Of a DNA stretch of 64,000 nucleotides, positions 4,985-33,812 are shown piece by piece (within the stretch, counting starts at the first letter, position 1; every line of letters begins with the position of its first letter). The translations under genes were made by a program, and so were the position numbers. The stretch comes from a virus, in IMG/VR virus record IMGVR_UViG_3300029131_000181, one strand, 5' to 3'. The notes beneath the pieces were generated by a model that was given only the letters and a program-made list of their open reading frames with translations, was not told the origin of the DNA and did no database searches.

Positions 4985-5002
4985 TTTTTCATGCCCTTTC
5001 TG

Positions 5003-5329: not shown

Positions 5330-5345
5330 CGTAAGTTCCCTCCCC

Positions 5346-5672: not shown

Positions 5673-5707
5673 AGTAATATGCTCCCTTTCTGTGTGTGAG
5701 ATGTTTC

Positions 5708-7792: not shown

Positions 7793-7809
7793 ACTTTTTC
7801 TCCTTTCAA

Positions 7810-7850
7810 CAAAAAAAGCGGACCTACCCCGCTATGGGATAAGTCCGCTT
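7810..7850 (-). terminator. leader hairpin + U-run between promoter and RBS
   Basis: Minus strand AAGCGGAC-loop-GTCCGCTTTTTTTGTTGAAAGGAG, followed by ATG 7792. Confidence 0.65.
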
Positions 7851-7901
7851 AAAATACAGATTGTGAATCCTACTGATTTTTAGTATCTGTTCACATTTTA
7901 T

Positions 7902-7929
7902 ATTGTACGGCGTTCGTATATTTTGGCAA
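7902..7929 (-). promoter_or_regulatory. motif-class promoter, copy 3 (degenerate core)
   Basis: TTGCCA-AAATATACGAACGCCG-TACAAT. Confidence 0.45.
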
Positions 7930-7932
7930 GCG

Positions 7933-8145
7933 CTATTTTTCCCCAAACTTGATGTCGATATATACAATCTCAAAGCACAGTGCAGCGCTCAAGGCAAATC
8001 CGAGAACGATATACGACGGGTGAGTTAAGGACCAGCCAGGATTCGCTAGATACCCATGCCAATATCTAATGTTAAGTACAAAAATAAACACCGGCAGAAT
8101 TAGATACCAGATGCTTTCCAGCACAATTTTGATGTCTTTTCGCAT
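7933..8145 (-). CDS. small membrane protein
   Basis: 70 aa with two hydrophobic segments. Confidence 0.5.
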   Translation of the reverse strand: MRKDIKIVLESIWYLILPVFIFVLNIRYWHGYLANPGWSLTHPSYIVLGFALSAALCFEIVYIDIKFGEK

Positions 8146-8146
8146 T

Positions 8147-8263
8147 TCACTCGCCTCGAAATTCGAGCGGAATCATGGTCCGGCGCTTTTGGCTTTCTGA
8201 ATACCAGATAACGCCAAATCCGACCAGGATAGCGAAAATGATGATTTTCAAAAGCTTCTTCAT
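8147..8263 (-). CDS. 38-aa single-pass membrane peptide
   Basis: Below the ORF-track cutoff, read by eye: MKKLLKIIIFAILVGFGVIWYSESQKRRTMIPLEFRGE. RBS AAAAGGAG. The stop abuts the next start. Confidence 0.45.
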   Translation of the reverse strand: MKKLLKIIIFAILVGFGVIWYSESQKRRTMIPLEFRGE

Positions 8264-8440
8264 TTATTTCTCCTTTTATGCTGCGGATGCAAAGATGTCA
8301 CCGCAAGGGCAGTTATAAAACATTTTATACCGACTTGTCACGGCCGATATATCCCAATTCTTAATATCTCTCTCCTTTTTTAGAAAATTTTTATCGCTGC
8401 GAATATCTTTATGGCATCGTGATATTCGCAGAATAATTGT

Positions 8441-14577: not shown

Positions 14578-14760
14578 CGGACTTCCAACTTTTCACGGGT
14601 TGCCCCGTTACTCAGTATGGATTTCTGCTTCATAGAGCGAGCTTACCGCAAGCCGCAGCTCTTGATAGAGGCTCGCTCTCCACAGACTTTAAGATTCGGT
14701 CGTCCTGACCGTACTGTTCGCCTGTGGTTATGAGGCGGCTGGCGTAGCCAGCATGTCCAT
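14578..14760 (-). ncRNA. TnpB omega RNA / right-end region (extent approximate)
   Basis: GC-rich nested hairpins overlapping and following the tnpB 3' end (GAGAGCGAGCC...GGCTCGCTCTA, CGGGGCAACCCG). By analogy to characterised TnpB loci. Confidence 0.5.
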
Positions 14761-15837
14761 TCCTTTCTTTAGAATGTTTTCTGCTGCATTTTTATCCCTA
14801 TCGTGTGATGTGTTACATTTCGGACAGACCCAATGCCGAACATTGAGGTTTTTTACCTCTTTGTTTTGGTAGCCGCAGCAAGAGCAGGTCTGGCTGCTTG
14901 GATAGAAGGTTGGTATTTTTACAACTACTCTTCCTGCCCAACTGGATTTATAATCAAGTTGTCGGAAGAACTCTCCCCAAGAAACATCGGAAATACTTTT
15001 AGCAAGGTTATGATTGCGAACCATACCATTTACATTGAGGTCTTCTACACAGATGATTTGGTTTTCTTTCACCAGTGTAGATGACAACTTGTGTAGGGCA
15101 TCTTTTCGCTTATTGGTCACTTTTTCGTGGCAGCAAGCCACCTTGATACGTTGCTTCTCCCAGTTGGCAGAACCTTTCTTTTTGCGTGACAGCTTTTTCT
15201 GCTCACGCTTTAGTTTAGCTTCCGCTTTCTGAAGATATTTATTGTTTGGATATTCTTTTCCATTGCTGTCAACAGCAAAAGATTTGATGCCAACATCTAA
15301 ACCGATGACGGTATCTTTAACCGGAAGCGGCATTACTTCTACTTTGCAAAGAATACTTACATAGTATTTGCCGCTTGCTGAGCGACGGATTGTTGCCTTA
15401 CAGATGCGTCCCTCAATGTTGCGACTCTTACGATAACGCATCTTCCCAAGTGTCGGAAGCTGAATGTACTTATCGTCAACTTTAATGCTTTTTGCTTTTG
15501 TAGTTGTATAGCTTTCTTCTCCCCGTTTTCGTTTGAATTGGGGGAACCCTTTACCGTCTTCGAAAAAGCCTTTATAGGCATTATTTAACTGACGACAGCT
15601 ATATTTGAGTGCTTGACTATCTACTTCAGCAAGCCAAGGAAGATAAGTTTTCATCTGAGGAAGCAGATTTTGTGTATCAATATAGCTCATACTTTCACCG
15701 CGCCGTTGATAAGCTTTTATACGCCTATCTAGCATAGAGTTATATACAAAACGGCAGCAGCCGAGCGTTTTATTGATTTTGACTTTCTGTTCTTCTGTTG
15801 GCTCTAGCCGAAATTTATAGCCTTTATGTACTTTCAA
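14728..15837 (-). CDS. tnpB: TnpB (OrfB) RNA-guided nuclease
   Basis: [18 protein letters not shown]-terminus, RuvC motifs ([26 protein letters not shown]) and zinc ribbon CSCCG..CPKCN. TTG start with AGGAGG RBS. Confidence 0.95.
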
Positions 15838-17283: not shown

Positions 17284-18807
17284 TCAGGCAGCCATCTTCG
17301 CTGCGGTTTTGCCCTTCGGACCCTTCTTCCGTGCATTGGCTTCAAGCTCCTTCTTGTTGGTATCATACCAAACCTCGAACTCCTTGAAGTTGTTCAACGC
17401 CCAAATCTCAGGAGAAGCCTTGCGACCGTAAGTTTCTTCCAACAGGTGGATAACTTTGCGGCCAACTTCTTCCATGATTTCGGCATCGTATTTGCCGCCA
17501 CCGCAGTAAAACCCTTCAGGCATAATAATGTCGTATTTAGGGTCAAGAACTTCAAGCCCCGGCTCCAAAACGCGAATGCCTTTGTAGCCAGCTTTGCGTA
17601 CAGCTTCAAATTTGAAGCGGTCCTTTTCGGCAGCATCTGCGTGCGGATATTTTCCATTATACTCATAAATGAGTCTCTGGATATGGTCCACGAAGTCTAA
17701 TCCCAAAAGACTATTTTCGCCCAAGATGTTTCGAACATCAAAGAAGGGGTTGGCAATTCCGTTTTCACCGGCAAATGCCAACATGGGACGTGTGTAAAAC
17801 CACTCCGGCTTGGAAATGGCATTGATTCTTCGCATTTTGCAGTCGTAGCATCCAGTAAGACCGTTGTTCACAGAACGAACAATATTGTTAATTGCAGCTT
17901 CGAATTCTTGCCCGCAATCACGGCATTTGAAGAAGGCTTTTTTGTTGCTTTGAACAGTTACTTCTGAAGCAGAAAGCTTGTTTTTACTACTCCACATGGA
18001 GGCTGCTTTCGGACATTGCGACGCAAGGTCATTGATGCCGGGAACAACCCTCCGACCTACGCAAACTAGGCATCCAGTGTTGCCGTTTTTTACAGCACAA
18101 ACAACATCTCCAATTATGGCTTTGAACTCTTGCCCACAATCCGGGCACACAAAGAAAGCTTTTTTCCCGCTTTTAGCTGTGACTTCTGAAGCGGAAAGCT
18201 TATTTTTATTACTCCACATAGCGGCTGCTTCTGGGCACTGTGACGCAAGGTCATTGATGCCAGGGGCAACTCTTAGTCCTCTGCAAACAGGGCAACCTGT
18301 GTTTCCGTTACTTACAGAATAGACAACGTGTTCGATTTTGGCTTCAAATTCTTCCCCGCAGTCCGGGCATACGAATATCGCCTTTTTGTTGCATTTGACA
18401 GCAATTTCCGAGGCAGACTTTTTGTTTTTGTTACTCCACATAGCTGCAATTTCCGGGTATTTCGACGCAAGGTCGTTGATGCCGGGGATAATCTTTCTTC
18501 CTGCGCAAACAGAGCAACCCGTGAATCCCTTGTCTACAGAACGAACAACATTAAAGATTCTGCTTTCAAATTCCTGCCCGCAATCAGGACACACAAAAGT
18601 GAGTTTTTTATTGCTTCCAGTAGTAACTTCAAAGGCAAGTTTCTTATCTTTTTCGCTCAGCATTGCAGCTACTTTTGGGCAAGCAACAGCAAGGCAATTT
18701 TTCTTAACCACTTCATACGGCATCTCAATGCCAAGAGCCGGAATAGGAGCGCAAGAAGCGCAGTTGCAAGAGTTAGCGTGCATCATAATTTTCATGTTAG
18801 TATTCAT
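17284..18807 (-). CDS. zinc-ribbon repeat protein with C-terminal Vsr/DUF559-like domain
   Basis: Trimmed to MNTNMKIMMH (AAAGGAG RBS). Four 74-aa repeats of the form PGINDLAS..P..AAMWS.KNK.SASEV......FF.CPDCGQEF......V......GNTGC.VC. C-terminal LDFVDH..IYEYNG..H resembles the Vsr-like nuclease core. Confidence 0.75.
   Translation of the reverse strand: MNTNMKIMMHANSCNCASCAPIPALGIEMPYEVVKKNCLAVACPKVAAMLSEKDKKLAFEVTTGSNKKLTFVCPDCGQEFESRIFNVVRSVDKGFTGCSVCAGRKIIPGINDLASKYPEIAAMWSNKNKKSASEIAVKCNKKAIFVCPDCGEEFEAKIEHVVYSVSNGNTGCPVCRGLRVAPGINDLASQCPEAAAMWSNKNKLSASEVTAKSGKKAFFVCPDCGQEFKAIIGDVVCAVKNGNTGCLVCVGRRVVPGINDLASQCPKAASMWSSKNKLSASEVTVQSNKKAFFKCRDCGQEFEAAINNIVRSVNNGLTGCYDCKMRRINAISKPEWFYTRPMLAFAGENGIANPFFDVRNILGENSLLGLDFVDHIQRLIYEYNGKYPHADAAEKDRFKFEAVRKAGYKGIRVLEPGLEVLDPKYDIIMPEGFYCGGGKYDAEIMEEVGRKVIHLLEETYGRKASPEIWALNNFKEFEVWYDTNKKELEANARKKGPKGKTAAKMAA
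17790..18681 (-). repeat. 4 x 222-bp in-frame tandem repeat inside the CDS
   Basis: ACTCCACA landmark recurs at 17989, 18211 and 18433 (period 222). Limits approximate. Confidence 0.8.
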
Positions 18808-18927
18808 GATAGATTTCTCCTTTGTTATCAATAAAAATAAAAAAGCAGCCACCCTTCCCTCTTTTGAGGGCAAAAGCGACTGCTTTACGTTCAATGGGTA
18901 TTGAGTTGTTATTCATGAAGAATTGCT

Positions 18928-19113
18928 TCACTCGTCCAGCATAACCTGCAAACGGGCGTTGAATTCCTTCATGTCGGCGCTTTCCTCGGCTGCAGCAAGG
19001 ACACGCGGATAAATTTCCGGATTCATGCTCTTCAGCATGTTCAGAGTAGAAAGAAGCAGAGGGTTGGTGATAGTCATAGTAAGCATCTCCTTGTTATTCA
19101 TAGTAATGTTCAA
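18928..19113 (-). CDS. hypothetical small protein
   Basis: 61-aa ORF whose stop-proximal region is followed by the next gene. The upstream gene overlaps by 4 nt. Confidence 0.45.
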   Translation of the reverse strand: MNITMNNKEMLTMTITNPLLLSTLNMLKSMNPEIYPRVLAAAEESADMKEFNARLQVMLDE

Positions 19114-19952
19114 ACGTTGGTATTCGTGCGATGGCCTTTCAGCGTGCCCTTGTTGAACTGTGTCAAACGGGCGTGCTTCAGAACAAATCCGTCTTCGAAT
19201 TGAACGTCAACGGCGTTTGTGCTGATGATGCGAATGATGGTTGCTTTCGAGCCATCATTCATGGTCTTGGTCATAGGTCCGCTATACTCGACCTTAAAAT
19301 CGAAAGGAAGCGGCTTATGCTTGGTGCAGCAGGGACAAGAAGAACTGCCGTTATTGATGCAGTGGACAAGAGAATTCACGTGAGTGACGTATTCTTCTCC
19401 GCAATCCGGGCATACAATGACGACCTTCTTGCAGCTATTGGCACTTACTTCACGCGGGGAGAAAGCGTTTTTGCTGCTCCACATTTTTGCCACGGCAGGA
19501 GATGTGGTTGCCAAGTCATTGGTTCCGGGAACGACTTTCATGCCACGGCATACGGGGCAAGTGAAGGTTCCATTCTCGATGTCTTTGACCAAAGAGATGA
19601 TTTTTGTTGTGTACTCTGCATGACAATCAGGGCATACAACAATCACCTTTTCGGGACTGTCACAGCGAACTTCGTCGGGATGAATCGTGTTTTTAGGACT
19701 CCACATAGCTGCAATTTTGGGATACTTGGTAGCCAAATCATTGACTCCGGGAACAAGCTTTTCGCTATGGGTTTCTTCGGCTTTGAATGCCGTAGTTACC
19801 TTACGGTTTTTGACCGTTTTGAATCGGCAGACAGGGCAGGCAGTTACGCCACGCTGCTTAGCTCTAACAAGGTTTGCCTCGTAGGTTGTGTATTTGCAAC
19901 CGCAATCGGGGCAGATGGTGATGACTTTTTCGTTCATGTTAATGTTATTCAT
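19110..19952 (-). CDS. zinc-ribbon repeat protein (paralog of 17284-18807)
   Basis: Trimmed to MNNINMNEKVITICPDCG. Three CPDC..CPVC treble-clef-like units with VPG.NDLAT linkers. Weak RBS. Confidence 0.65.
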   Translation of the reverse strand: MNNINMNEKVITICPDCGCKYTTYEANLVRAKQRGVTACPVCRFKTVKNRKVTTAFKAEETHSEKLVPGVNDLATKYPKIAAMWSPKNTIHPDEVRCDSPEKVIVVCPDCHAEYTTKIISLVKDIENGTFTCPVCRGMKVVPGTNDLATTSPAVAKMWSSKNAFSPREVSANSCKKVVIVCPDCGEEYVTHVNSLVHCINNGSSSCPCCTKHKPLPFDFKVEYSGPMTKTMNDGSKATIIRIISTNAVDVQFEDGFVLKHARLTQFNKGTLKGHRTNTNV

Positions 19953-20008
19953 GATAGTTCCGGGTGCTGCTCTTGATGCAATCTCCACAGCGGGTCGGTC
20001 GCTTCTGC

Positions 20009-20044
20009 AAAACAAAAAGGACAACCTCAAAATGAGGCTGTCCT
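20009..20044 (-). terminator. leader hairpin + U-run between promoter copy 7 and gene
   Basis: Minus strand AGGACAGCC-loop-GGTTGTCCTTTTTGTTTT. Confidence 0.6.
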
Positions 20045-20100
20045 TGCAAAAGCGGAATGTTAAAAATAAATTGGTAAGTGGTATCTTTGATACAACATCT

Positions 20101-20128
20101 ATCATAGCCATCTCGCACACATTGTCAA
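20101..20128 (-). promoter_or_regulatory. motif-class promoter, copy 7
   Basis: TTGACA-ATGTGTGCGAGATGGC-TATGAT. Confidence 0.55.
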
Positions 20129-20129
20129 A

Positions 20130-20169
20130 CAAAAAAAGACCCTGCCCGCATTTTGCTGCGAGCAGGGTT
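20130..20169 (-). terminator. rho-independent terminator
   Basis: Minus strand AACCCTGCTCGCAGCAAAATGCGGGCAGGGTCTTTTTTT, after gene 20189-20509. Confidence 0.75.
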
Positions 20170-20188
20170 TGCTTTTGCACTGTTGTGC

Positions 20189-22815: not shown

Positions 22816-23265
22816 TCAACCATTTTCTAGGTTCCCTGTGCTCTTGTTTGTTGCGGAAAGGACGTATTCTTTGCCGTATAGTGTTACCCAAAAATTGTTA
22901 CAACTACCATTAAAATAGCCACGATTTTTCAAGTCTTCGAAACGTAGGCGCGCTTTTCTTGTCGCTTCTTTTTGGTTTGCGTTGTTTTCTCGGTCTTTGT
23001 ATCCATTTCCCGTCATAAAAAGCATTCGCAATTCAGAGTTGTTATCAATCACTATAGGAACACTATCTTGACCATTTGCGAGTTCTAGTGCCTTTTTCAA
23101 TATTGTAATAGATTCCTTGCCATCAATCTTGGAAAGCCATTCTTCAGCGTCCTTAGTAGTCACTGTCACTTTTTCATTTCTCATAACAGCTTTTTTTCGC
23201 TTATTATGGTAATAAGTATAAATGTGCTGTGCCACAATTTTCTTGTCGTCATTTTCGCTTTTCAT
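22816..23265 (-). CDS. hypothetical protein, AT-rich cargo gene
   Basis: 149 aa, RBS AAGGAGG. Confidence 0.65.
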   Translation of the reverse strand: MKSENDDKKIVAQHIYTYYHNKRKKAVMRNEKVTVTTKDAEEWLSKIDGKESITILKKALELANGQDSVPIVIDNNSELRMLFMTGNGYKDRENNANQKEATRKARLRFEDLKNRGYFNGSCNNFWVTLYGKEYVLSATNKSTGNLENG

Positions 23266-23284
23266 ACAGAATCCTCCTTAAAAT

Positions 23285-23393
23285 AAACAGCCTCCCACCG
23301 CAGTCAGCATACTACTGATTACGATGGGAGGCTCAAAACCTTTTGTGATGGTTCTATTATATCACGCCTTGCGAAAAACTCAAGGCAAATTTC
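23285..23393 (-). repeat. promoter + leader-hairpin cassette, copy B
   Basis: TTGAGT-N16-TATAAT with a TGA extension (-10 at 23356-23361). An 18-bp imperfect hairpin at 23291-23331 is followed by CTGTTTATTTT and the RBS. Confidence 0.7.
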
Positions 23394-23399
23394 AATAAC

Positions 23400-23789
23400 T
23401 CAGTCAATATCTAAGTTACCAAAATCATCTGCAGGAGGCTCGTTGTACCAGTCATACTCCTCTGCTTTTTCATCATCCAAATCGTCATCAAAGAAGTCGT
23501 CATCAGTGACGGGAATGTCTTCCCTGATGTCCTGCTGTGGCACGAACGTGGCAGCGGTAGCGGTATAGTCGCCGTCTTCGAGCACAATCTGCACGGTTGC
23601 GATATCCCCTACTTTGGGGACAGAACCGTTCTGAACGGATGCATCGGGGTTACGCTGGACATCCACCTCGACATCGAGCGCCGGGATGAAGACCACGATG
23701 GTCTTGTGGGTGACGGTAGTCACGGTTCCGGAGTAAGCGGCTTCGTTTTCGTGAATGTCCTGGCGGACGGTTTTCTTAGTATTAAACAT
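23400..23789 (-). CDS. hypothetical protein with beta-rich N-terminal half and highly acidic tail
   Basis: 129 aa, RBS GAGG. Tail DDDFFDDDLDDEKAEEYDWYNEPPADDFGNLDID. A possible OB-fold/SSB-like organisation is speculative. Confidence 0.65.
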   Translation of the reverse strand: MFNTKKTVRQDIHENEAAYSGTVTTVTHKTIVVFIPALDVEVDVQRNPDASVQNGSVPKVGDIATVQIVLEDGDYTATAATFVPQQDIREDIPVTDDDFFDDDLDDEKAEEYDWYNEPPADDFGNLDID

Positions 23790-23799
23790 TAACTTCTAC

Positions 23800-24200
23800 C
23801 TCGCTGATTTTGTATGCTTCATCGTGGACCTCCCCACCTAAACCTTTCGGCTATAGTTGGGGCTTCTCCGTGGGTTGTAACCCCACGGTAAGTCTCTGCG
23901 TAACCCGAAGGTAGAGATACGACCCGAACTTAGCTAACAATGCCTGACGGCATTGGTCGCCACATAGGGGTTAGTCTCCCGCAAAGTTCTCGCAACACAG
24001 TGTAATCCCAACAGATGGGCCCGGGCTGTTGAGTCGCCACGGGGGGCTCAACAGTGAATGCAACTGTTTAAGGGAGTACAATGTGCATTGGGTTCTACGC
24101 TCAATGTCAGGAACTTTAGCCTTACACTGAGACCATGCCTTCTTTGACATGGGTTTTGTTACCTCGCGGATGAAATACCGGGCACCAATGTTATAATTGG
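23800..24200 (-). ncRNA. candidate large structured RNA or structured 5' leader (class unknown)
   Basis: ~400 nt with no ORF of 60 aa or more in any frame. Nested hairpins at 23832-23862, 23868-23888, 23893-23917, 23939-23954, 24026-24054 and 24132-24153. UUCG and GAAA tetraloops appear only in the minus-strand reading. Confidence 0.45.
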
Positions 24201-24353
24201 GAGCTAGAAAACCCGCAGGCTTTCCTGTGGTATGAACGGCTCCTGTTTTTGAATTTTTTTGTAAAATAACGACCTAGCAGCTTGGCCAACGGTATAGAAT
24301 GCATGTATAATATATGTATGAAATGATACTACATAACTGTCGGAGGAATCTTT

Positions 24354-24758
24354 ATGGCATTGCCCGGTATGCTTGAGCTTACGAAGGAACAAACGCAACG
24401 GCTTGTGAATATCATCGAGGATAAGCAAGGTTGTATTTGCAACGTATCTAATAGTATGCGCACAGTCTGGATTACTTCTGATGACGGTGAAAATGAACTT
24501 AGGGTTTCATTTCTTTGTAATTTTGCTTTGGTTATTTCACGTGTTAGGTTTTCTATAAAGCGTCATGGTACAATGTCTCTGTTGCTCGATGCGTTGAAAG
24601 AAATTTGCGAAGACTATGGTGTGCATCGTATCGTTATGCAATCTGTACTAACTCGTGAAATGGAAGTCTTTTGTCATAAAGCTGGGTTTCGAGCAGACCC
24701 GAACGCAACAATGGAGGTTGATGGGATTCTTACAGGGGATTATAAATTGGATTTTTGA
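24354..24758 (+). CDS. small GNAT-like acetyltransferase (tentative)
   Basis: 134 aa with GGAGG RBS 8 nt upstream and TATAAT at 24306-24311. KRHGTMSLLLDALKEICEDYGVHRIVMQS resembles GNAT motif A. Confidence 0.5.
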   Translation: MALPGMLELTKEQTQRLVNIIEDKQGCICNVSNSMRTVWITSDDGENELRVSFLCNFALVISRVRFSIKRHGTMSLLLDALKEICEDYGVHRIVMQSVLTREMEVFCHKAGFRADPNATMEVDGILTGDYKLDF

Positions 24759-24844
24759 AAAAATACGACATTTGTATTCCCATCTGTGCCGGTGAACATA
24801 CCGAACATGAAATAGCGATATTTTTTCATGATATGCTCCCACCA

Positions 24845-25981
24845 TTACATATCCGACTTCGCCGCATTACACTTCTTGCACAGCATCTGCAGATTGTCAT
24901 CAGTGGTATGTCCGCCCTTGCTCCAAGGAATGATGTGGTCGCCTTCCATATCCTCAAAGGCGTACTCGGTGTTGATGCCATTTGCAACGCACAAGGGGCA
25001 CTTGTGACCCTGCCGCTCATAGGCGCGGAGTTTCTGCGACTCAGTAAATGCACGAAGGGACAGATGCTTTTCGTCGCGCCAAGTGCGGTCAGAGAGGATG
25101 AACGGGACAATGCCTGCCTTCTTGGTCACGTCATCATCCAGCACGAGTTTCTTGATATCAGCGTCCAGAGCGTTGCTATTATACTGCTTTGCATGGTACT
25201 TGTTGTAGAGTAGTCCCCATGCCTGTGTATCCGTAATTCCCTTCCGCTTGGTCGGGAACAACATTTTAGCCCAGTTGATTACAGACTGGAAGTAAAGCCA
25301 GAGGTCATTGGCGTCCTCGTCATGCTGGTGAATCGCCATGTACATCTGCCCGGATTCCAGACCATCACGGTCAGCAATCCACGCCAGTGCCTTTTCCAGC
25401 AACTCCTGCCGAATCGGGTTACCTTTCAGGTATCCGTCAGCCATCTTCGCAGCAACACAGTTGCGTTTCGAGAAGTAGTTCTTGGCATCGGCCAGCCACG
25501 GTCCTGTATAAGTAGCGTTCAGCAGCTCCTGCGGAGTCAACACCTCACCGGCGATGTTGATGCGCTTGAACCATTCCAGTTTCTCGGCTTCGGAGCCTTC
25601 ACAGATATTCACGGTCAACTCGTAGTCCAGAATTTTCTGTTTTTCCTCATCTGTCAAGTTCTGGAAGAACTTGTCGTTGCCGTTGATTTTGACGGGGAAA
25701 TCCTTGTTGACATACTGTGCAATGGAAATTGTCCGCTGTTGTCCATCGAGAACCTCGTAGGTATCTGGACCGGTCTTGGACCAGTACATGAGGTTCAACG
25801 GGAATCCGTTCATTACCGAATCAATGACGGCTGCACGCTGTTTATCGGAGAAGCAAAAATTTCTTTGGTAGCTTGGCCTAATCGTGAGGCGATTGTTGTA
25901 CCCATATACGCCACTGTCTCCGTCATCCGAATAGTTCTCTACAAGGTCGGATACCTTGATTTTGGTTTCTGTGATTTTCAT
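24845..25981 (-). CDS. DUF262 (GmrSD N-terminal-like) + HNH endonuclease fusion
   Basis: IRPSYQRNF..EVLDGQQRTISI is the DUF262 hallmark. C-terminal HKCPLC..GDHIIPWSKGGHTTDDNLQMLCKKCNAAK is an HNH motif. ATGA overlap with the upstream gene. Confidence 0.85.
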   Translation of the reverse strand: MKITETKIKVSDLVENYSDDGDSGVYGYNNRLTIRPSYQRNFCFSDKQRAAVIDSVMNGFPLNLMYWSKTGPDTYEVLDGQQRTISIAQYVNKDFPVKINGNDKFFQNLTDEEKQKILDYELTVNICEGSEAEKLEWFKRINIAGEVLTPQELLNATYTGPWLADAKNYFSKRNCVAAKMADGYLKGNPIRQELLEKALAWIADRDGLESGQMYMAIHQHDEDANDLWLYFQSVINWAKMLFPTKRKGITDTQAWGLLYNKYHAKQYNSNALDADIKKLVLDDDVTKKAGIVPFILSDRTWRDEKHLSLRAFTESQKLRAYERQGHKCPLCVANGINTEYAFEDMEGDHIIPWSKGGHTTDDNLQMLCKKCNAAKSDM

Positions 25982-26862
25982 AACAATTTCCTTTCTCTGC
26001 CCACAATGTTAATATCGTCAGCACTTTTTATAATTGCTTTTATTATATTCTGCGTCAACTCATATTTAGAAATTACATGCTTTTTGGCAGATGCATAAGA
26101 AGCGGCATTCAGACGCATCACATCCTTTTCTTTCGCATTGCGAATCAATCTATTCTCCTTTTGCAACGAAGAGTTGCTGCCGCATGATGTAACGCAGTAA
26201 ATTTTTGGCGACAATATTGTGATAACCATATGATTTGATAAACTATATTCTGTGCCTGTGTTATTCAAACAGCCTGTACCCAGCACAAGCCCTATATCCG
26301 GAAGTAAAATGGCGCTATTGTTTGCTTTATAGATAACGGTTCCTGAACTGTAATATCCAATTTTTACTTTATAGTAGTTCCACTCATTATCAGATAACTT
26401 TGGATGGTTCCCCGTCTGTATAAATTTCATGAAATTGCAAAATGCTTCTTCTGTATCGAACAGTTTTTTTATTTCGTCTATATACGATGGTAGCCTGAAC
26501 AGCATACGCAAGGCATACTCTCCAAGCCAATGCGCAGATTCTTCGGATATTCTATTTTCCGAATTCAAATAAGTTGTTTTATCAATTTCATTAAGAATTT
26601 CGTTCAACTTTTTCGCATCAGAATTCTCAATATCATTGCTCAGGAGTCCTTTTTCAATCTTCCCACGATAGCATTCGTTCCATTTTTTGAGCTCTGGATA
26701 TTCATATAAATTGTTTTCCGCTGCAATACCTTTTACATTTGCCCCTACATGTATAATTTTTCCAGTTTCCTTGTTATATACAAAAAAATTTCCGTCTTTT
26801 CCAGCGAATTTTTTCAGTCGGTATTTTGGCAAATAATGTTGATTTTCATTTTGTACCTTCAT
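25978..26862 (-). CDS. DUF4238-like protein
   Basis: Trimmed to MKVQNENQHYLPKYRLKKFA (AAAGGAGG RBS). The N-terminal HYLPK..LK.F signature is recalled from DUF4238. AT-rich. Confidence 0.6.
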   Translation of the reverse strand: MKVQNENQHYLPKYRLKKFAGKDGNFFVYNKETGKIIHVGANVKGIAAENNLYEYPELKKWNECYRGKIEKGLLSNDIENSDAKKLNEILNEIDKTTYLNSENRISEESAHWLGEYALRMLFRLPSYIDEIKKLFDTEEAFCNFMKFIQTGNHPKLSDNEWNYYKVKIGYYSSGTVIYKANNSAILLPDIGLVLGTGCLNNTGTEYSLSNHMVITILSPKIYCVTSCGSNSSLQKENRLIRNAKEKDVMRLNAASYASAKKHVISKYELTQNIIKAIIKSADDINIVGRERKLL

Positions 26863-27910
26863 CGCCTTGCTTCCTCCTTTTTCTGATAAAAATTCTCTGA
26901 TAAACTGCAGAAAGCTGCACGCCATCAGGGCTTACCGAAAAGTCGCTCCTTCCTCTTTTAACAACTTTTGGTGACATCTTATCTCTTAATGCACCAGAGC
27001 CGGAGATTGTTACGCCATCCGCCTTGAAGAACTTAAAGCCAAGGCTTGTATAATCTTTATCGGCTCTGCAAGGCGTATCATCGAACATGGAACCACCAAC
27101 AATCTCAAACTGCTCCGGATTATACTTATCCAAAAAAGTGATAGGCACGCCCATAACGCCTTCATAGTCCACCGGAATATTCGCAACCCTATCCACATTG
27201 ATGGCCATGTAGTTATCATAGCGGGGGTAGCGCTCTTCCACGTCCGGCAGAGGGTTTCCGTCATCGTCATAGTACCGCTGCCAGAGAATCAGTTTCTCGT
27301 GGCGCTTCTGGATGTCGAGGTTAGTAAACCATCTTGTTAGACCGTTGATTTTCTTTGTTATTCCATTGGGGGTATCAAACTCGGATGGTGAGCTATAACC
27401 AATCCACACTTTGTTTTCTTTCAGAAGTGGAAAAAACTCTTTGTATGTAATGGCGTTCTTATTCCCGATAATCAGGAACTTTTTGCCGTGCTGCATCAGT
27501 GTGCCAACATACTCACGGAATAAGCTGAATGGCGGATTGGTCACCACGATATCACTTTCATCCAGCAAGTCAAGGCATTCCTTGCTCCGGAAATCGCCGT
27601 TGCCTTCCAGCAGGGTTTTTACACCGACTTCCACATCATTATCATCTCCGCCCTCGTACTCCATCTTGTAGGTTGGTTCGGTGTGGTCATAGTGCGTAGA
27701 AATCAGCTTCTTTAAGCCAAGTTCTGCAAAGTTCAGGTGAAAATACCGCCAGAAAGCGGACCATGTCGGGTCGTCACAGTTGCAGAATACAACCTTGCCT
27801 GCGAAATGCTTCTTGTAGTGCCGCAATTCCTCTGCGACATCCTCGATTCTGGTGTAGAACTCATCATTCTTCGCGTCCTTCGCCTTATGAAGGTTATCGT
27901 TCTTTGCCAT
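26846..27910 (-). CDS. N6-adenine DNA methyltransferase (EcoRI-methylase-like family)
   Basis: Trimmed to MAKNDNLHKAKDAKNDEFYTR..VVFCNCDDP..LGLKKLI. Catalytic VVTNPPFS. Confidence 0.85.
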   Translation of the reverse strand: MAKNDNLHKAKDAKNDEFYTRIEDVAEELRHYKKHFAGKVVFCNCDDPTWSAFWRYFHLNFAELGLKKLISTHYDHTEPTYKMEYEGGDDNDVEVGVKTLLEGNGDFRSKECLDLLDESDIVVTNPPFSLFREYVGTLMQHGKKFLIIGNKNAITYKEFFPLLKENKVWIGYSSPSEFDTPNGITKKINGLTRWFTNLDIQKRHEKLILWQRYYDDDGNPLPDVEERYPRYDNYMAINVDRVANIPVDYEGVMGVPITFLDKYNPEQFEIVGGSMFDDTPCRADKDYTSLGFKFFKADGVTISGSGALRDKMSPKVVKRGRSDFSVSPDGVQLSAVYQRIFIRKRRKQGDEGTK

Positions 27911-27923
27911 GTCTATATCTCCC

Positions 27924-27959
27924 AATAAAAAATCCAGCACCGAATTACTCAGCACTGGA
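27924..27959 (-). terminator. hairpin + U-run directly before the methyltransferase RBS
   Basis: Minus strand TCCAGTGC-loop-GCTGGATTTTTTATTGGGAG. Overlaps the stop of the upstream gene. Confidence 0.5.
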
Positions 27960-29813
27960 TGTATTTTCCGTATTACAATGACCGCATGATGTTTTCTTGT
28001 TTTCTACAAGACTTTGGGTTATCGCAAAGCATTCGTTTCCGCAATCACATTGACATTTCCATCGAGCATGACCGTTTTGGCTTCCTGCTCTCTCAATGAC
28101 CTTTAGCTTACCAAAGTGCATATTAGCTAAATCGTAAGTTCTTCCTTTTTTGACGAACTTATCGCGTGATGGATTTGCTTTCAAAAAGGCATCTGCTTCC
28201 TCTTCTGTCATGCTTTCGTATTCATTGGCAAATAACCAATGATATCCTCCGGCAACTGTACGTAGCTTGTTGCAGCAGTTCAAGATAGGCGAACCGCCGC
28301 TAATCCCGTATTTAAGAGAAGCCTCTTTTGCTGTAGAAAATCTCTCTTTTGTTTCAACGCAAATCACACTCTTGAAGTGTTTTTGTTTATAGCATTCAGG
28401 GCAGTTATGCCCGTATACTCTATCGGCTATTATCATCTTGTAGGAATGACCGTTTTTGCATTTCCACCAGCATTTTTCTGCAGACCCGGATGAGAAATAT
28501 TCGGGCTTCAAATTCTTGTTTTTTTCGTAATCCCATTCAGCAACAATTTCAGGATGTTCTGTAGCAAGGTTGTTCTTTTCGTTCCGTCTTCTTTTGCCTG
28601 TTGTACAAACAGGACATGTTGCGTTTTCTTTTGCTCTGCCATTGATGGGTGCTTCCCATTTATGCCCGCACTTAGAGCAAATCCAATGAACCATTTCTGA
28701 GCTAGATGATGACACCATCATCGGGTCAATGCCTACATTCAGTTCGTAGTCCCATTCTTTCAGGAGTTCCGGATGCCGTCCGCCCATACTTCGTTCAGCT
28801 TTGTAATCTTTGTATTGACGATAGATGTCTTTTGAATCCTTTTGTGTATCAATGTTAGGTTCAGAAACGCCAAGCATCTCTAAGCATTGGCGAATTGCTG
28901 CGTCGAGCGTTGCGTGCCCTCTATTGTTTTCTCTGATGATATTCTCGCTATTACGAATTTCCTGAAGCCCATGCTCGCGAATACGAATTATCCGAATTCC
29001 ATTCTGCTTGCATTTTTCGGACTTTTCTTCGTCATTTTTCACTCTTTTCTCATCAGAATGGTATCGAACACCATCGTATTCTACTGCAGTGCGAATGGAG
29101 GGGATGTAAATGTCCAGCTCTTTTCCAATAACTTTCTTGTTTCCAATAACAGCCTCTGAAAAATACTTTTTTGCATAATACGCTACTGCTTGTTCTTGGA
29201 ACGAGGTCTGTCCTTTATCGATAGTGCTGCATATCGGGCAACTCTTGATACGCTGGATGTAATGATATACGCTTGCCTGCCATTCCGTGCCACAAGCAGA
29301 GCATTTCCACCATACAACAATATTGCTTCCTTGTGTCAGCATACTGACATCTACGTCCTTATTTTTTGCAAAGTCATAGTCTTGCATAGCTTCTGCATTA
29401 TCTACAAGCATTTTCGAAGCTTCGGTAATGTGTTTGCAACAACCGCAAGACTTCACTTTTCCCCGCAGCAAAGAAGAGCGATAAGCAACAAATTCTTTTC
29501 CGCAGCTACACATACAGTTATAACGAATGTTTCTATGCCCCGTGCTTCCAATCGCATCTTCTGCCAAAGAAATAACTTTGATACCGTTGTGTTCTTCGCC
29601 AACCAAATCCTGGTATGTACGTTTACGGTCTTTACCTCGGCAGTCTTTACACTTTAACCCTTTCAAGAGCGCGTCGATACCAATTATCATTGTGTTTCCG
29701 CAGCAGTTACATTTCACCAAATAGGTATCTGCTTTTGAATTAGAGCCGGGGATAGTTTCGAAAACTGTTAAATCTCCGTATGTTTTGCCTGTTCTATTTA
29801 TTTTCGCCGCCAT
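27945..29813 (-). CDS. mosaic zinc-ribbon / Vsr-like endonuclease / NUMOD-like HTH protein (homing-endonuclease-like)
   Basis: 622 aa. CxxC ribbons throughout. KELDIYIPSIRTAVEYDGVRYH is a Vsr/DUF559-type core. HPELLKEWDY..WICSKCGHKW is a DUF4379-like ribbon. FSTAKEASLKYGISGGSPILNCC..GGYHW is a NUMOD/IENR-like HTH. Confidence 0.75.
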   Translation of the reverse strand: MAAKINRTGKTYGDLTVFETIPGSNSKADTYLVKCNCCGNTMIIGIDALLKGLKCKDCRGKDRKRTYQDLVGEEHNGIKVISLAEDAIGSTGHRNIRYNCMCSCGKEFVAYRSSLLRGKVKSCGCCKHITEASKMLVDNAEAMQDYDFAKNKDVDVSMLTQGSNIVVWWKCSACGTEWQASVYHYIQRIKSCPICSTIDKGQTSFQEQAVAYYAKKYFSEAVIGNKKVIGKELDIYIPSIRTAVEYDGVRYHSDEKRVKNDEEKSEKCKQNGIRIIRIREHGLQEIRNSENIIRENNRGHATLDAAIRQCLEMLGVSEPNIDTQKDSKDIYRQYKDYKAERSMGGRHPELLKEWDYELNVGIDPMMVSSSSSEMVHWICSKCGHKWEAPINGRAKENATCPVCTTGKRRRNEKNNLATEHPEIVAEWDYEKNKNLKPEYFSSGSAEKCWWKCKNGHSYKMIIADRVYGHNCPECYKQKHFKSVICVETKERFSTAKEASLKYGISGGSPILNCCNKLRTVAGGYHWLFANEYESMTEEEADAFLKANPSRDKFVKKGRTYDLANMHFGKLKVIERAGSQNGHARWKCQCDCGNECFAITQSLVENKKTSCGHCNTENTSSAE

Positions 29814-29832
29814 ATTGAATTTCCCTCTTTAA

Positions 29833-29868
29833 TAAAAAATCCTATGCAGAATCTCTCTGCATAGGATG
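29833..29868 (-). terminator. hairpin + U-run directly before RBS of gene 29813
   Basis: Minus strand ATCCTATGCAGAGAGATTCTGCATAGGATTTTTTATTAAAGAGGG. Confidence 0.65.
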
Positions 29869-30111
29869 CCTTTTTACTTATTTGAATAAGGCTGTTTATT
29901 TCTTCCGTCTGAATCTATTATGTCACGGGCTGGTCCCCACAAAAAAATGAGCGTTAAATGTGCGGAAACGCACAAAAAACGCACGCACACATTTTTTGAA
30001 TGATGCGTGCGTTTATGATAGCTTTTATTTAATGAAATGAGAGAATATATAGTGGCACTTCAGAGTAGGGCTTTCTGCTTTCCCCTGTACCCTGTCGTTG
30101 ATGGATGCTTT

Positions 30112-30246
30112 TCATTTGCGCCCGCACTTGGTGCAGACCCAGTAAACAGCATTTGTGCCGGAAGCTGTTACCTGCATCGGGTCGATGCGGGTGTTGAGCT
30201 TACGGTTCCAGTTGTCGCGCAGTTCCGGATGAAATTTAGAAAACAC
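30112..30246 (-). pseudogene. orphan single zinc-ribbon repeat fragment
   Basis: Read by eye: ..FSKFHPELRDNWNRKLNTRIDPMQVTASGTNAVYWVCTKCGRK*. Matches the HPEL..W..N...DP......S...V.W.C.KCG unit of the 622-aa protein. No ATG or RBS. Confidence 0.55.
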
Positions 30247-30278
30247 AAAAAGAAGCCGCAGAAACCTATCCTCTGCGG
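30247..30278 (-). terminator. rho-independent terminator just downstream of promoter copy 10
   Basis: Minus strand CCGCAGAGGATAGGTTTCTGCGGCTTCTTTTT. Confidence 0.65.
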
Positions 30279-30304
30279 CTACACTTATTTATCTTATATT
30301 TCCT

Positions 30305-30332
30305 ATCATATCCAATTCGCACGGATGCACAA
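30305..30332 (-). promoter_or_regulatory. motif-class promoter, copy 10
   Basis: TTGTGC-ATCCGTGCGAATTGGA-TATGAT. Confidence 0.5.
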
Positions 30333-30483
30333 GGCAAAATTGTGGCAAAACCGTAGCAAAACAGTGGCAAAGACAAGGTACATGGGACTTGTTCCGTTGC
30401 TGAACAGGAAATGCCAAAAAACAACTGCTTTGCTCAAATATGTCATCTCGTGTATTTTCTTGTCATTTATTGTAAATTCGCGC

Positions 30484-30512
30484 TTGCTTTTTGGTGCGGG
30501 ATGTGCTATTAT
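30484..30512 (+). promoter_or_regulatory. plus-strand promoter of the 466-aa gene
   Basis: TTGCTT-N17-TATTAT, with an overlapping TATAAT 3 nt downstream. Confidence 0.5.
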
Positions 30513-30568
30513 AATTACATAAGATGACAGCATTGTACAGCTAACGACATATTTGAAAGGAGTACACC

Positions 30569-31969
30569 ATGATTTATGTTAACCTCGCCATGCCCGTGAT
30601 TTTCTATAAGCAGCTGCCCGGCATCGCTAAGAAGCTGGATGTGGATGCTGATTTTTTGAAAGGCTTTCTCACCAACGCCAGGTGTTATGTCGAGGATGCC
30701 GGAAAAGGTGAAGTGCTTGAGCTGGACAACTCGGCCGACACGATAACGAAAGTTGTCGCAACCCATGAGAAGCGTTTCTATGGCGCGGAAGCCATTGTGG
30801 AATTCGCCAAGAGCAAAGGCGTGGATATTCCTGCACTGAACCATTTTGAACTTGGTGCAGATATCTCTGCCCATGCAACGGAAGACCAAGTTGCCAACAT
30901 CACTGCATTGGCCGCACGAGTCGAGCGCCTCAATAATCGGTACAAGAGTCTTGCCCGGCTTGAAGCCCCGGACGTCATCCTGATGAACGAAGCAAGGATG
31001 GTGCGTGACGCAGTAGAGCAGCTGGAAGATAACAGCGGTACATACTCCCCGGCTCTTGACCAGAACGGGGTTGCCTATCAATCCTTGAAGGATATTGGGT
31101 ATTCTCTTGTCACCGGTTGGGACAAGTCGGTACTTGAAAAGAACAGCAATAAGGATACGGAGGCCACCTTTCCCAAAGAGCCCGACTTTCAAAGGCTGGC
31201 ATCGCTGGTCAAAAAAGCCATCGGAACCCGCACACAGGGTAAGTTTGCGTTTCAAGCGGGGCTGACTCGTGGATATATCAGTAACCTTGCGAACGGCAAC
31301 GCGAAAGCTCAGCCGACCGAGAATACCATCAAGAAAATTGCAAGCGCAACAGATGCTGTCACGGAGAACGAGCTTCGTATCGCCTGTGGGTATGAGCCCT
31401 TGCCTGACGACGGGAAAGACAAGCTCTCTATGCAGCGTGCAAGCATGTCTGATGACGCATGGCAGAAAGACAACGTGGATGCATTCCTCTCTTTTCTGAA
31501 TGAAACGATTCCAATGTCCACTCCTCTTTCGTCCACTGAAATTCTTCAAGCTCTTTTCAAGGAAAAATACGGTGACAAGAACGACCAGATTCTGCTGGAA
31601 AAGGTCTCTGCCCCCGGCACCTATCGTACGGAAGGTACGGCTGCTAATGTCATTCTACCCATTCGTCTTTGTTGGTTCAGCTTCAAGCGGATGCTGATGC
31701 AGACTCTCTATGTAGGACTTATCGGGCATTACAGCAAAAACGATGAGCTGTACATTACCGGATACATTTCTTCTGTGAAAGAGCTGCATGACGCGGTTCC
31801 GGCGCTGCGAGGCGGCATTGATGCGGCCTATGACGCGAGTCTGCCGGAGGGAATCGACATCATGAAGTTCCCGGTATTTTACACGGCTTCCAATGTTCAG
31901 GAAGCATACAAGCGGGTCCAGCAGAAAATCGTCTCCAAAATTGACGAGTCAGCCGCCGTAAGCTTGTGA
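30569..31969 (+). CDS. XRE-type HTH-containing protein
   Basis: 466 aa with RBS AAAGGAG. Internal TRTQGKFAFQAGLTRGYISNLANGN is HTH_3-like. The 344-aa minus ORF opposite is a shadow. Confidence 0.75.
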   Translation: MIYVNLAMPVIFYKQLPGIAKKLDVDADFLKGFLTNARCYVEDAGKGEVLELDNSADTITKVVATHEKRFYGAEAIVEFAKSKGVDIPALNHFELGADISAHATEDQVANITALAARVERLNNRYKSLARLEAPDVILMNEARMVRDAVEQLEDNSGTYSPALDQNGVAYQSLKDIGYSLVTGWDKSVLEKNSNKDTEATFPKEPDFQRLASLVKKAIGTRTQGKFAFQAGLTRGYISNLANGNAKAQPTENTIKKIASATDAVTENELRIACGYEPLPDDGKDKLSMQRASMSDDAWQKDNVDAFLSFLNETIPMSTPLSSTEILQALFKEKYGDKNDQILLEKVSAPGTYRTEGTAANVILPIRLCWFSFKRMLMQTLYVGLIGHYSKNDELYITGYISSVKELHDAVPALRGGIDAAYDASLPEGIDIMKFPVFYTASNVQEAYKRVQQKIVSKIDESAAVSL

Positions 31970-32042: not shown

Positions 32043-32462
32043 ATGCAAATGTTCGTCAATAATAACCTGTCATATGGTAGAGGTTATGTTTACAATATTC
32101 AATATCATATTGTGTGGTGTACAAAGTACAGAAAACCAGTTTTGATAAACGAAACAGAACAATCGCTAAAAGAGTCTCTGCAGCAGACCGCCGAAACCAT
32201 AAAAATCAATATTGTAGAAATGGAATGCATGCCTGACCATATTCACCTGTTGGTGGAGTGTTCACCGCAGCATTTTATCCCGGATATGATAAAAGTGCTT
32301 AAAGGCAACAGTGCAAGAGCTATTTTTATCGCCAATCCGGACTTGAAGAAGCAACTTTGGGGCGGGCATCTTTGGAACCCAAGCTACTTTATTGCAACCG
32401 TCAGTGATAACACGCGCAAACAAGTACAAGAATACATTGCATCTCAAAAAATAAGAAACTGA
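32043..32462 (+). CDS. tnpA: IS200/IS605 Y1 (HUH) transposase TnpA
   Basis: YNIQYHIVWCTKYRKPVL, the PDHIHLLV HUH motif and C-terminal YIASQ tyrosine. Confidence 0.95.
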   Translation: MQMFVNNNLSYGRGYVYNIQYHIVWCTKYRKPVLINETEQSLKESLQQTAETIKINIVEMECMPDHIHLLVECSPQHFIPDMIKVLKGNSARAIFIANPDLKKQLWGGHLWNPSYFIATVSDNTRKQVQEYIASQKIRN

Positions 32463-32480
32463 TGAAAGGGGGGCTTCGCA

Positions 32481-33812
32481 GTGAAAATCACTTCCAGCTA
32501 TGCTGTGGAAATCAAAAAGCAGAAAATGTTCGACAATACTATAAAGATTTATCGCGAAGCCGTTTCTTTCTTGATTGGTTGTTTTAACAAAGAATGGGAT
32601 TCTATTCAAAAAGTAGAGGGTGCCAAATCTCGAAAGAGTTTTGCCGAGAAGTTAATTCATACTACAAAATACAGCACTGCTAAATATGATTTCGATGCCA
32701 AGTTTTATAAGTTCCCTAGTTACCTGCGCAGAGCGGCTATTCAAGCAGCACTCGGCTCTGTAAGCAGCTACTACAGTAGCCATAAGAACTGGGAAGCAAA
32801 CGGCAAGGTTGACAGGGAGCCAAAACTTCAATGCGATAGATTTTGCTTCCCGGCTTTTTATAAGACCGTTATGTATGAGGAAAGCAACAAACCAAACCAG
32901 TGCTATCTGAAGCTGTATAAAAACAATGACTGGGTTTGGGTTCCTATCGCAATGCGTGCCACCGATGTCAAATACATCACGAAATACTGGTCACATTGCG
33001 AAAAGAGTGCTCCTGCACTCGAAAAGAAGTACGGGAAGTATTTCCTACGCTTTGCCTTCGAGGAAGAGGTAAAACTCTCCGAAACTGAAATTCAAGACAG
33101 GCGTATCTGCGCTGTAGACCTTGGTCTCAATACTGACGCCGTGTGCAGCATCATGACTGCCGATGGAACTGTCCTTGCAAGAAAATTTATCAATTTTGCA
33201 AGTGAAAAAGACCATCTGTATCATGTGCTCAACCGTATTAAGCGTAAGCAAAGAGAACATGGACCTAAGAGTGCTGCTGCTATGTGGCGTTACGCCAAAG
33301 CCTTGAATAACGATATAGCGAAAAAGGTTGCTGCTGCGATTACTGAATTTGCTGTGCTTTATTCTGTAGATGTGATTGTTTTTGAACATTTGTCATTTAC
33401 AGGCAAAAAGCACGGTGGCAGTAAGGCACAGAAGCTGTCGATGTGGAAGCGTAATTCCATACAGGATTATGTGGAACACAAGGCGCACCGCTGCGGTATC
33501 CGGATTTCGCGTATCTGTGCTTGGGGGACAAGCAAACTCGCCTTTGATGGCAGTGGTGCTCTCAAGCGTGATGAAACCAATCGTGCCCTTGCAACGTTTG
33601 CAAGCGGCAAACAATACAACTGCGACCTAAGTGCGAGCTACAATATTGGCGCTCGCTACTTTGTCAGAGAGTTGCTAAAACCCTTGCCAGCGATGGTAAG
33701 GTCTCAGCTTTCGGCTAATGTTCCGGATGTTGAGCGTAGAATCCAAGTTACACTTGCCACGCTTAAAGTTCTGTATCCTGAGCTTAAAAAACTCAGTACA
33801 CAGGCAGCGTAA
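32481..33812 (+). CDS. tnpB: TnpB-like RuvC nuclease lacking the zinc-finger cysteines
   Basis: 443 aa with GTG start. RuvC triad candidates are CAVDLGLNTD, VIVFEHL and NCDLSASYNIGARYF. The usual CxxC..CxxC segment is replaced by WGTSKLAFDGSGALKRDETNRALATFASGKQY. Confidence 0.8.
   Translation: MKITSSYAVEIKKQKMFDNTIKIYREAVSFLIGCFNKEWDSIQKVEGAKSRKSFAEKLIHTTKYSTAKYDFDAKFYKFPSYLRRAAIQAALGSVSSYYSSHKNWEANGKVDREPKLQCDRFCFPAFYKTVMYEESNKPNQCYLKLYKNNDWVWVPIAMRATDVKYITKYWSHCEKSAPALEKKYGKYFLRFAFEEEVKLSETEIQDRRICAVDLGLNTDAVCSIMTADGTVLARKFINFASEKDHLYHVLNRIKRKQREHGPKSAAAMWRYAKALNNDIAKKVAAAITEFAVLYSVDVIVFEHLSFTGKKHGGSKAQKLSMWKRNSIQDYVEHKAHRCGIRISRICAWGTSKLAFDGSGALKRDETNRALATFASGKQYNCDLSASYNIGARYFVRELLKPLPAMVRSQLSANVPDVERRIQVTLATLKVLYPELKKLSTQAA

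Follow-up and report, generated by a model that had tools for sequence, protein, structure and literature searches.

A DUF4238 gene as a probable exchangeable passenger within a two-gene restriction-modification-like operon of a virus-derived sequence

Defence genes nested in larger defence operons are described for the systems Hma, BREX, DISARM and Type I restriction-modification (RM), under the term 'guilt by embedding' (Payne et al., bioRxiv 10.1101/2024.01.29.577857), and PrrC in EcoprrI is the classic embedded case discussed in the same work. A DUF4238 protein from the P2 hotspot of E. coli protects alone against T7 (Rousset et al., 2022, PMC9122126), which is the single-gene antiphage determinant named in an initial annotation of the DNA analysed here. 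This DNA is a stretch of 64,000 nucleotides (nt) of the IMG/VR virus record IMGVR_UViG_3300029131_000181 (the window, to which all unprefixed positions refer), and its minus strand shows, between 24845 and 27955, three successive open reading frames (ORFs) in the program gene calls: an EcoRI-family N6-adenine methylase, a DUF4238 protein and a nuclease with DUF262 and HNH domains (Table 1). The locus is probably an RM bicistron which carries an independent DUF4238 defence gene as passenger, and the junction between its two genes a place where single-gene defences dock and are swapped.

The three genes lie on the same strand and are tightly packed. The methylase stop TGA (26848-26846) falls 17 nt within the DUF4238 ORF, and the stop codon of DUF4238 overlaps the nuclease start codon in the ATGA at 25981-25978; both junctions were read directly. 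The ATG of the DUF4238 gene is preceded by the Shine-Dalgarno sequence AAAGGAGGAAG. This organization agrees with the initial annotation, which regarded the three overlapping genes as one unit, and points to translational coupling; the domain assignments (EcoRI_methylase, DUF4238, and GmrSD_N/DUF262 plus HNH in Pfam) and the NPPF and DGQQR motifs, both present in the translations, were also correctly given there. The same holds for the higher AT content of the DUF4238 gene: its GC content and GC content at third codon positions are 0.350 and 0.349, against 0.468 and 0.594 for the methylase core and 0.500 and 0.644 for the nuclease, and it is compositionally foreign to its neighbours. Public metagenome assemblies list identical trio proteins, with the same calls, in 859 index blocks, on contigs of up to ~290 kb. 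Upstream, only 34 nt separate the methylase ATG from the stop of a 622-aa zinc-ribbon/nuclease-like gene, and a hairpin stem at 27960-27932 divides this gene from the trio. A promoter scan performed no better than chance (14 found, 14.0 expected).

The methylase matches the Pfam family EcoRI_methylase (PF13651, 3.1e-109) and, at full length, the PADLOC model MTase_II (1.9e-105). Its NPPF motif stands in a VVTNPPFSL context, and its conserved core closes at 27160-27095 with the box GVMGVPITFLDKYNPEQFEIVG, hereafter the FEIVG box. The nuclease shows a GmrSD_N/DUF262 domain (PF03235, 7.8e-20), with the DGQQR motif in an LDGQQRT context, and an HNH domain (PF01844, 2.4e-13); its C-terminal part matches only HNH and HNH_5 in Pfam, and DUF1524 was not found there. 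The HNH and zinc residues are C328, C331, D348, H349, N363, C368 and N372, and the HNH catalytic residues, the four zinc cysteines and DGQQR are invariant in an alignment which spans ~50% identity and bacteria of four phyla. The DGQQR domain probably binds nucleotide and/or DNA. The PADLOC model REase_II PDLC03418 covers the nuclease from residue 1 to 377 (model positions 1-371 of 372, 2.2e-129), and the family contains at least 7993 database clusters with E below 1e-10. Sequence searches of the PDB returned the generic HNH entry 4h9d only for the nuclease and no match for the methylase, while NCBIfam gave only Cas9/IscB HNH noise for the nuclease. Literature and structure searches found no characterised member of the nuclease family, no REBASE name and no recognition site.

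The two-gene form is widespread. A cellular survey with one genome per species shows 80 nuclease loci, which belong to Bacillota, Bacteroidota, Pseudomonadota, Spirochaetota, Patescibacteria, Fibrobacterota and archaea. The methylase is immediately upstream on the same strand in 76 of them, and three of the four remaining loci are truncated by a contig end. The distance from methylase stop to nuclease start is within -20 to +30 nt in 62 of the 76 pairs. Plasmids of Aeromonas, Ligilactobacillus, Macrococcoides and others likewise show an 'EcoRI family' methylase gene abutting a gene for a 'DUF262 domain-containing protein'. The initial annotation considered the pairing paradoxical and of unusual composition. 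This paradox dissolves, because a conserved bicistron of cognate methylase followed by nuclease is the signature of a modification-blocked system; the full-length match to PDLC03418 and the presence of HNH instead of DUF1524 point the same way. A DUF262-HNH protein beside a methylase would then be a common restriction enzyme family hidden under domain-only names. Methylase catalytic motif and SAM-dependent fold, nuclease active site and conserved linkage are all present, as in a Type II RM pair, and the two genes are best explained as a classical, modification-blocked Type II-like RM bicistron. Since a cognate methylase is adjacent, the nuclease is probably modification-blocked and not modification-dependent: the N6-adenine methylase would mark the element's own DNA, and the DUF262-HNH enzyme would cleave unmarked DNA through its HNH site.

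The gene between methylase and nuclease differs from one relative to another. In a scan of IMG/VR, the nuclease is encoded on 35 viral contigs, which are 9-390 kb long and in most cases 90-98% identical in it, and DUF4238 is present on just one. Both flanks were readable in 28 loci, which were compared at the junction (loci of relatives are given L numbers; their ORF starts were assigned by a simple rule). In all 28 loci the junction is filled, with 242-1375 nt of GC content 0.30-0.41 from methylase stop to nuclease start, and the ORFs in this slot form at least nine mutually unrelated families by BLAST clustering (Table 1). All the slot genes share the strand of the pair, and their ends fall at -4 to +30 nt relative to the nuclease ATG. 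Nuclease relatives at 74-79% identity also have other, unrelated genes at this junction. Family F6 is decayed to fragments of 96 and 139 aa in L106 and L119. The few filled cellular junctions contain a Phd/ParE toxin-antitoxin pair, an HTH-Fic gene (SoFic 3.8e-31 and PDC-S04 1.2e-33 in PADLOC), a gene encoding a DUF6261 protein and two unassigned ORFs. Same-strand nesting, a pair which also exists without cargo (62 of 76 cellular systems) and alternative cargo with defence domains are all seen here, and are the marks of embedded genes. By these comparisons, DUF4238 appears to belong to a set of at least nine defence-type genes which can replace one another in the slot, and not to be a built-in third component, and the five uncharacterised families F2, F3, F5, F6 and F8 together with the divergent DUF4238 become anti-phage candidates by position. 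The possibility that the slot genes of the relatives are themselves divergent DUF4238 genes was discarded, as alignment, BLAST clustering and Pfam show no similarity. Unassigned slot families were seen in L099, L104, L109, L100, L118, L111 and relatives. A megablast of window positions 23000-31000 against the INPHARED phages gave no match.

The borders of the exchanged segment are sharp. Towards the nuclease, similarity returns in the 28 loci at 25981-25998, a point which coincides with the start codon or precedes it by at most 17 nt. Towards the methylase, similarity ends at 27096-27105 in at least 13 loci, right after the codons of GVMGVPITFLDKYNPEQFEIVG. L116 shows 96% identity with the window from 31000 to 27096 and 93% from 25982 to 23000, has another methylase tail together with a TIR gene between these two stretches, and is best described as a clean cassette replacement of window positions 27094-25982. 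Outer borders are also recognizable. Upstream, the module begins at 27935 (27935/27932 in most phage loci), 25 nt before the methylase ATG, and downstream it ends in many loci at 24850-24844, at the nuclease stop. Since the upstream border is so close to the methylase ATG, the module would have no space for a promoter of its own, and the whole module seems to be itself a movable unit inside a larger variable region of these phages. L012, L013 and L121 contain extra partial copies of 'box plus tail' upstream of the cargo, which are the footprints expected from recombination at the box. L012 (1-608) and L013 show a complete methylase end, then a second partial box and tail, then DUF4238; L121 (2796-4296) shows three consecutive 'GxMGVPIT...FEI' box-plus-tail modules in the methylase ORF. 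Phase variation may lie behind these stacks, or they may be a reserve of methylase C-termini. In the mechanism proposed here, the junction would have turned, in large gut phages or phage-like elements, into a swap slot for one short low-GC gene, co-transcribed and translationally coupled, and passengers would be exchanged through homologous recombination, with the FEIVG box of the methylase gene and the start of the nuclease gene as anchors. A second, shorter HNH gene is located ~2-5 kb downstream of the nuclease in L104, L108, L116-L118 and L130, with 35-38% identity to nuclease residues 302-377, and L015 (6162-6932) shows a 256-aa HNH gene directly after the nuclease.

Table 1. Features of the methylase-DUF4238-nuclease locus in the window, and genes which occupy the same junction in the window and its phage relatives (aa, amino acids).
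Feature	Position	Strand	Size and particulars	Basis
Methylase ORF	26846..27955	-	ATG used at 27910, 354 aa	Gene call
EcoRI-family N6-adenine methylase, conserved core	27095..27910	-	aa 1-272, includes NPPF	Pfam
Methylase C-terminal tail, type T1	26846..27094	-	aa 273-354, within exchangeable region	Relatives compared
DUF4238 ORF	25978..26925	-	ATG used at 26862, 294 aa	Gene call
DUF4238 gene, probable embedded cargo	25978..26862	-	294 aa, low GC, own Shine-Dalgarno	PF14022
Nuclease ORF	24845..25981	-	378 aa	Gene call
Predicted restriction nuclease	24845..25981	-	378 aa; ParB/Srx-like DUF262 plus zinc-ribbon HNH	Pfam, PADLOC
Exchangeable cassette	25982..27094	-	Methylase tail plus cargo	Breakpoints in relatives
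Terminator-like hairpin plus GGATTTTTTATT, 3' end of upstream 622-aa gene	27924..27960	-	13-pair stem plus T tract	
Slot family DUF4238		Same as pair	Window cargo	PF14022
Slot family F2		Same as pair	185-241 aa; one 493-aa member with HEPN domain	No Pfam/PADLOC assignment for the family
Slot family F3		Same as pair	222-330 aa	No Pfam/PADLOC assignment
Slot TIR protein		Same as pair	253 aa	PF13676 1.6e-21; PDC-S66 1.3e-40; ThsB 8.5e-26
Slot family F5		Same as pair	250-277 aa	No Pfam/PADLOC assignment
Slot family F6		Same as pair	338 aa	No Pfam/PADLOC assignment
Slot family F8		Same as pair	275-293 aa	No Pfam/PADLOC assignment
Slot CAP12/Pycsar-type TIR protein		Same as pair		PF10137 1.6e-22; PDC-S35 9e-24
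Slot singleton		Same as pair	191 aa	BLAST clustering

The DUF4238 protein of the window matches PF14022 over residues 7-266 (1.1e-17, 64.8 bits, cut-off 27) and shows the conserved residues Q8, H9, P12, F19, Y53, E79 and R123, with the QHY-x-P motif present. Its AlphaFold2 model has a predicted local distance difference test (pLDDT) score of 82, and among viral proteins its fold is matched best by one from the P2-like phage Smp131, itself uncharacterised (E 7e-8, template modelling score 0.53). The subfamily is rare: it contains 10 protein clusters at 78-100% identity, and 18 representatives among 1.84 billion. In the closely related elements checked, it is flanked by this same methylase and nuclease, and the order of the trio is identical across all 10 clusters examined. 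Elsewhere the trio is linked only within one narrow lineage, and this order reflects descent, because every instance is a close relative. Three sister phages (L134-L136, 5001-5846) lack the methylase-nuclease pair but have, at the corresponding position of the genome, a DUF4238 gene with 36% identity; their flanks are the same, with three methylase genes and a gene of 438 aa upstream and bPH_2 and the following genes downstream. L004 (7119-8004) shows a T7-to-T8 frameshift near DUF4238 codon 26 (window ~26790), with methylase and nuclease 100% identical to those of the window; this may be a real knock-out or an assembly error. From these comparisons DUF4238 looks dispensable or autonomous, and the passenger of the window would most likely be a second anti-phage layer which acts alone, like the P2-hotspot protein of E. 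coli. The sister phage L137, which likewise lacks the pair, contains at this position two DUF4238 paralogues (5001-6014 and 7481-8380) together with DUF3800 and type IV secretion system coupling-protein (TraG/TrwB) genes, and the coupling-protein gene raises the question of whether some of these elements may be conjugative or phage-plasmids.

Several points weigh against this explanation. The viral nature of the element is based on its membership in IMG/VR and on PHROG matches only. The Type II label derives from a REBASE-derived hidden Markov model and from gene linkage, and the kin of the nuclease are publicly annotated only as DUF262/HNH/GmrSD-domain proteins, which includes the cluster names of eight homologues from cultured organisms. 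The enzymes from which the DGQQR domain is mainly familiar depend on DNA modification or sense it. Furthermore, the pair may not be a plain Type II system, because the methylase tail lies in the part that varies and NEPF replaces NPPF in some relatives. DUF4238 gave no match in PADLOC-DB v2 up to E=10, where the presence of a DUF4238 model in the library is unconfirmed, and its structural model shows no fold match in the PDB. The protein is a distant member of the family with few relatives, and its activity is putative. Finally, genes so closely coupled in translation could also depend on one another in function.

The methylase tail beside the cargo is hypervariable. At least nine unrelated tail types are present among the 28 phage loci, the tail is variable throughout the methylase family, and it terminates in a conserved Y-x-R-I-x-I strand. 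Tail type T1 is found with DUF4238 and F5, T2 with F2, TIR and F3, and T4 with F2 and F8; a role of the tail as a cargo-specific adaptor was rejected, since each varies in these combinations independently of the other. Nuclease sequence does not follow the tail either (95.2% identity among loci which share a tail type, 94.2% between types), which raises the question of how one nuclease tolerates at least nine methylase C-termini. A structural model of the methylase built from database homologues has low confidence (pLDDT 66 only). The C-terminal position in a gamma-class enzyme suggests that the tail is a target-recognition module; if so, one nuclease would serve methylases of differing specificity, and it might take its specificity from the methylase. 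A programmable two-part system can be imagined on this basis, in which a specificity-agnostic HNH nuclease with an NTP (nucleoside triphosphate)-binding ParB fold is directed by a methylase whose C-terminal module is swapped, along with a nested defence gene, at a phage-borne cassette site. Such a system is unlikely on present evidence; the spare tails stacked in L012 and L121 fit it, and, were it true, the cassette site would resemble an integrase-free 'integron' for immunity genes, flanked by restriction genes. A Type III-like Res subunit with a superfamily 2 (SF2) helicase-type ATPase was not found by Pfam, in which the nuclease consists of DUF262 and HNH only. L121 (3821-3875) contains a (GACA)13.8 repeat within the methylase ORF, which could add phase-variable switching of specificity in a programmable system. 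NEPF replaces NPPF (motif IV) in L116 (3176-4228) and L109 (3198-4244), while all other aligned members show NPPF; the nuclease beside these two methylases is intact, at 92-93% identity.

A passenger which acts alone has also to be weighed against one held in check by its hosts, as PrrC is the precedent in EcoprrI (10.1101/2024.01.29.577857). In that case the cargo would be kept inactive by the methylase and nuclease and released when an anti-restriction protein disables them, and the operon would be an integrated two-layer system rather than a host with a hitch-hiker. In its favour, the genes are nested, on one strand and coupled in translation, the cargoes are effectors typical of abortive infection, and the hypervariable tail beside the cargo could be a docking surface. 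Such a masking arrangement is nevertheless rather improbable here, given that the cargo families are unrelated and that independent action is known for several of them (TIR/ThsB-like, SoFic, DUF4238), that tail type and cargo family are combined freely, that DUF4238 exists without the pair in sister phages and that the 62 close-spaced cellular systems are cargo-free.

A further reading is an obligate three-component system, in which DUF4238 would be a subunit that senses the methylation state or regulates HNH cleavage, or in which the trio would be a methylation-sensing toxin/immunity arrangement. Against it, nucleases which are 90-98% identical stand beside other middle genes of at least eight unrelated kinds, and most genomes have no middle gene; the pair is intact in the L004 assembly with its frameshifted DUF4238, and DUF4238 occurs alone in sister phages. 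The reading frames which overlap on both sides of DUF4238, and the trio order kept in all 10 subfamily clusters examined, do favour an obligate trio, but the instances are all close relatives and their order is one of descent. We consider this system very unlikely, and the comparative data largely refute it, including the toxin/immunity arrangement suggested in the initial annotation; a DUF4238 wedged into a three-part mechanism is not supported.

Least credible, to the point of being hardly tenable, is a Type IV, modification-dependent nuclease (GmrSD/BrxU-like) beside a methylase which is an unrelated phage enzyme for self-protection or anti-restriction, for although the nuclease has a DUF262 domain with DGQQR, several more orphan methylases lie nearby in the phage genomes and one source labels a homologue McrA, methylase and then nuclease overlap or abut in 62 of 76 loci of Bacteria and Archaea, as cognate pairs do, the C-terminus is HNH (PF01844) without DUF1524, and the match to the Type II REase model is full-length.

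An RM bicistron with an exchangeable, autonomously acting passenger is thus retained as the probable explanation, and the remainder of the window shows features of its own. A second, near-identical hairpin with a 13-bp stem and GGATTTTTTATT is located at 29831-29867 (minus strand), and this 12-mer has two copies in the window. Both hairpins flank the 622-aa gene (29813-27945, minus strand), which encodes a DUF4379 zinc-ribbon/Vsr-like (homing-endonuclease-like) protein; the hairpins on either side suggest that this gene inserted into a terminator or duplicated one. It is one of three paralogous multi-zinc-ribbon DUF4379 genes inside 12 kb of the minus strand (17284-18894, 19110-20180 and 27945-29813), each of which matches phage 'HNH/homing endonuclease' PHROGs, and their number and position differ among sister phages (e.g., L003). 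Small mobile nuclease genes are abundant in the window: it also contains an IscB-like RRXRR plus HNH protein (53107-54504, minus strand, 5e-46), an IS200/IS605 TnpA and TnpB pair (32043-33812, plus strand) and a transposase/TnpB-like gene (14728-15837, minus strand, phrog_506, 2.4e-134). Upstream of the hotspot, a divergent gene (30569-31969, plus strand) encodes a 466-aa HTH_3 protein, annotated with 628 aa in other assemblies, which shows a 65-residue stretch like RNA polymerase beta' (TIGR02386, 1.6e-7, far below cut-off). No tRNA genes were found in the 64,000-nt window.

Compared with the EcoRI RM system, the methylase of the window falls in one Pfam family with its counterpart (PF13651) and shares its catalytic NPPF motif, whereas the nuclease is an unrelated HNH enzyme instead of PD-(D/E)XK, and the gene order is methylase followed by nuclease. 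GmrSD, BrxU and SspE share with the window nuclease an N-terminal ParB/Srx-like DUF262 domain with DGQQR and a C-terminal His-Me-finger nuclease; however, the latter is here a zinc-ribbon HNH (PF01844) and not DUF1524, and the protein is half as large (378 aa) and adjoins its cognate methylase. EcoprrI shows, as this locus does, a gene for an abortive-infection-type effector inside an RM operon, but the window cargo has no ABC-ATPase or anticodon-nuclease domain and is interchangeable, and no evidence emerged at this locus that the RM proteins mask it. The P2/P4 hotspots (PMC9122126) are phage-borne sites between conserved genes with alternative anti-phage cargo, DUF4238 included, and the DUF4238 model of the window best matches a protein of the P2-like Smp131. 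They differ in that the conserved flanks of the window slot are themselves a putative defence system, that the carriers are unrelated gut phages and that this DUF4238 belongs to a distant, rare subfamily without PADLOC model match.

The closest parallel is 'guilt by embedding', where extra genes in the same orientation are nested in a defence operon whose host system also exists without them, and three cargoes found here match the candidate models PDC-S66, PDC-S35 and PDC-S04 of Payne et al. The host in this case is a minimal two-gene Type II-like bicistron, outside the survey of those authors; it is carried by large genomes of (gut) phages, all the phage relatives examined have a filled slot, and the breakpoints are sharp to the base, with an exchanged unit which takes in the C-terminal tail of the methylase. 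Embedding would thereby extend to phages and to a Type II-like operon of two genes, than which no host can be smaller, with base-sharp borders.

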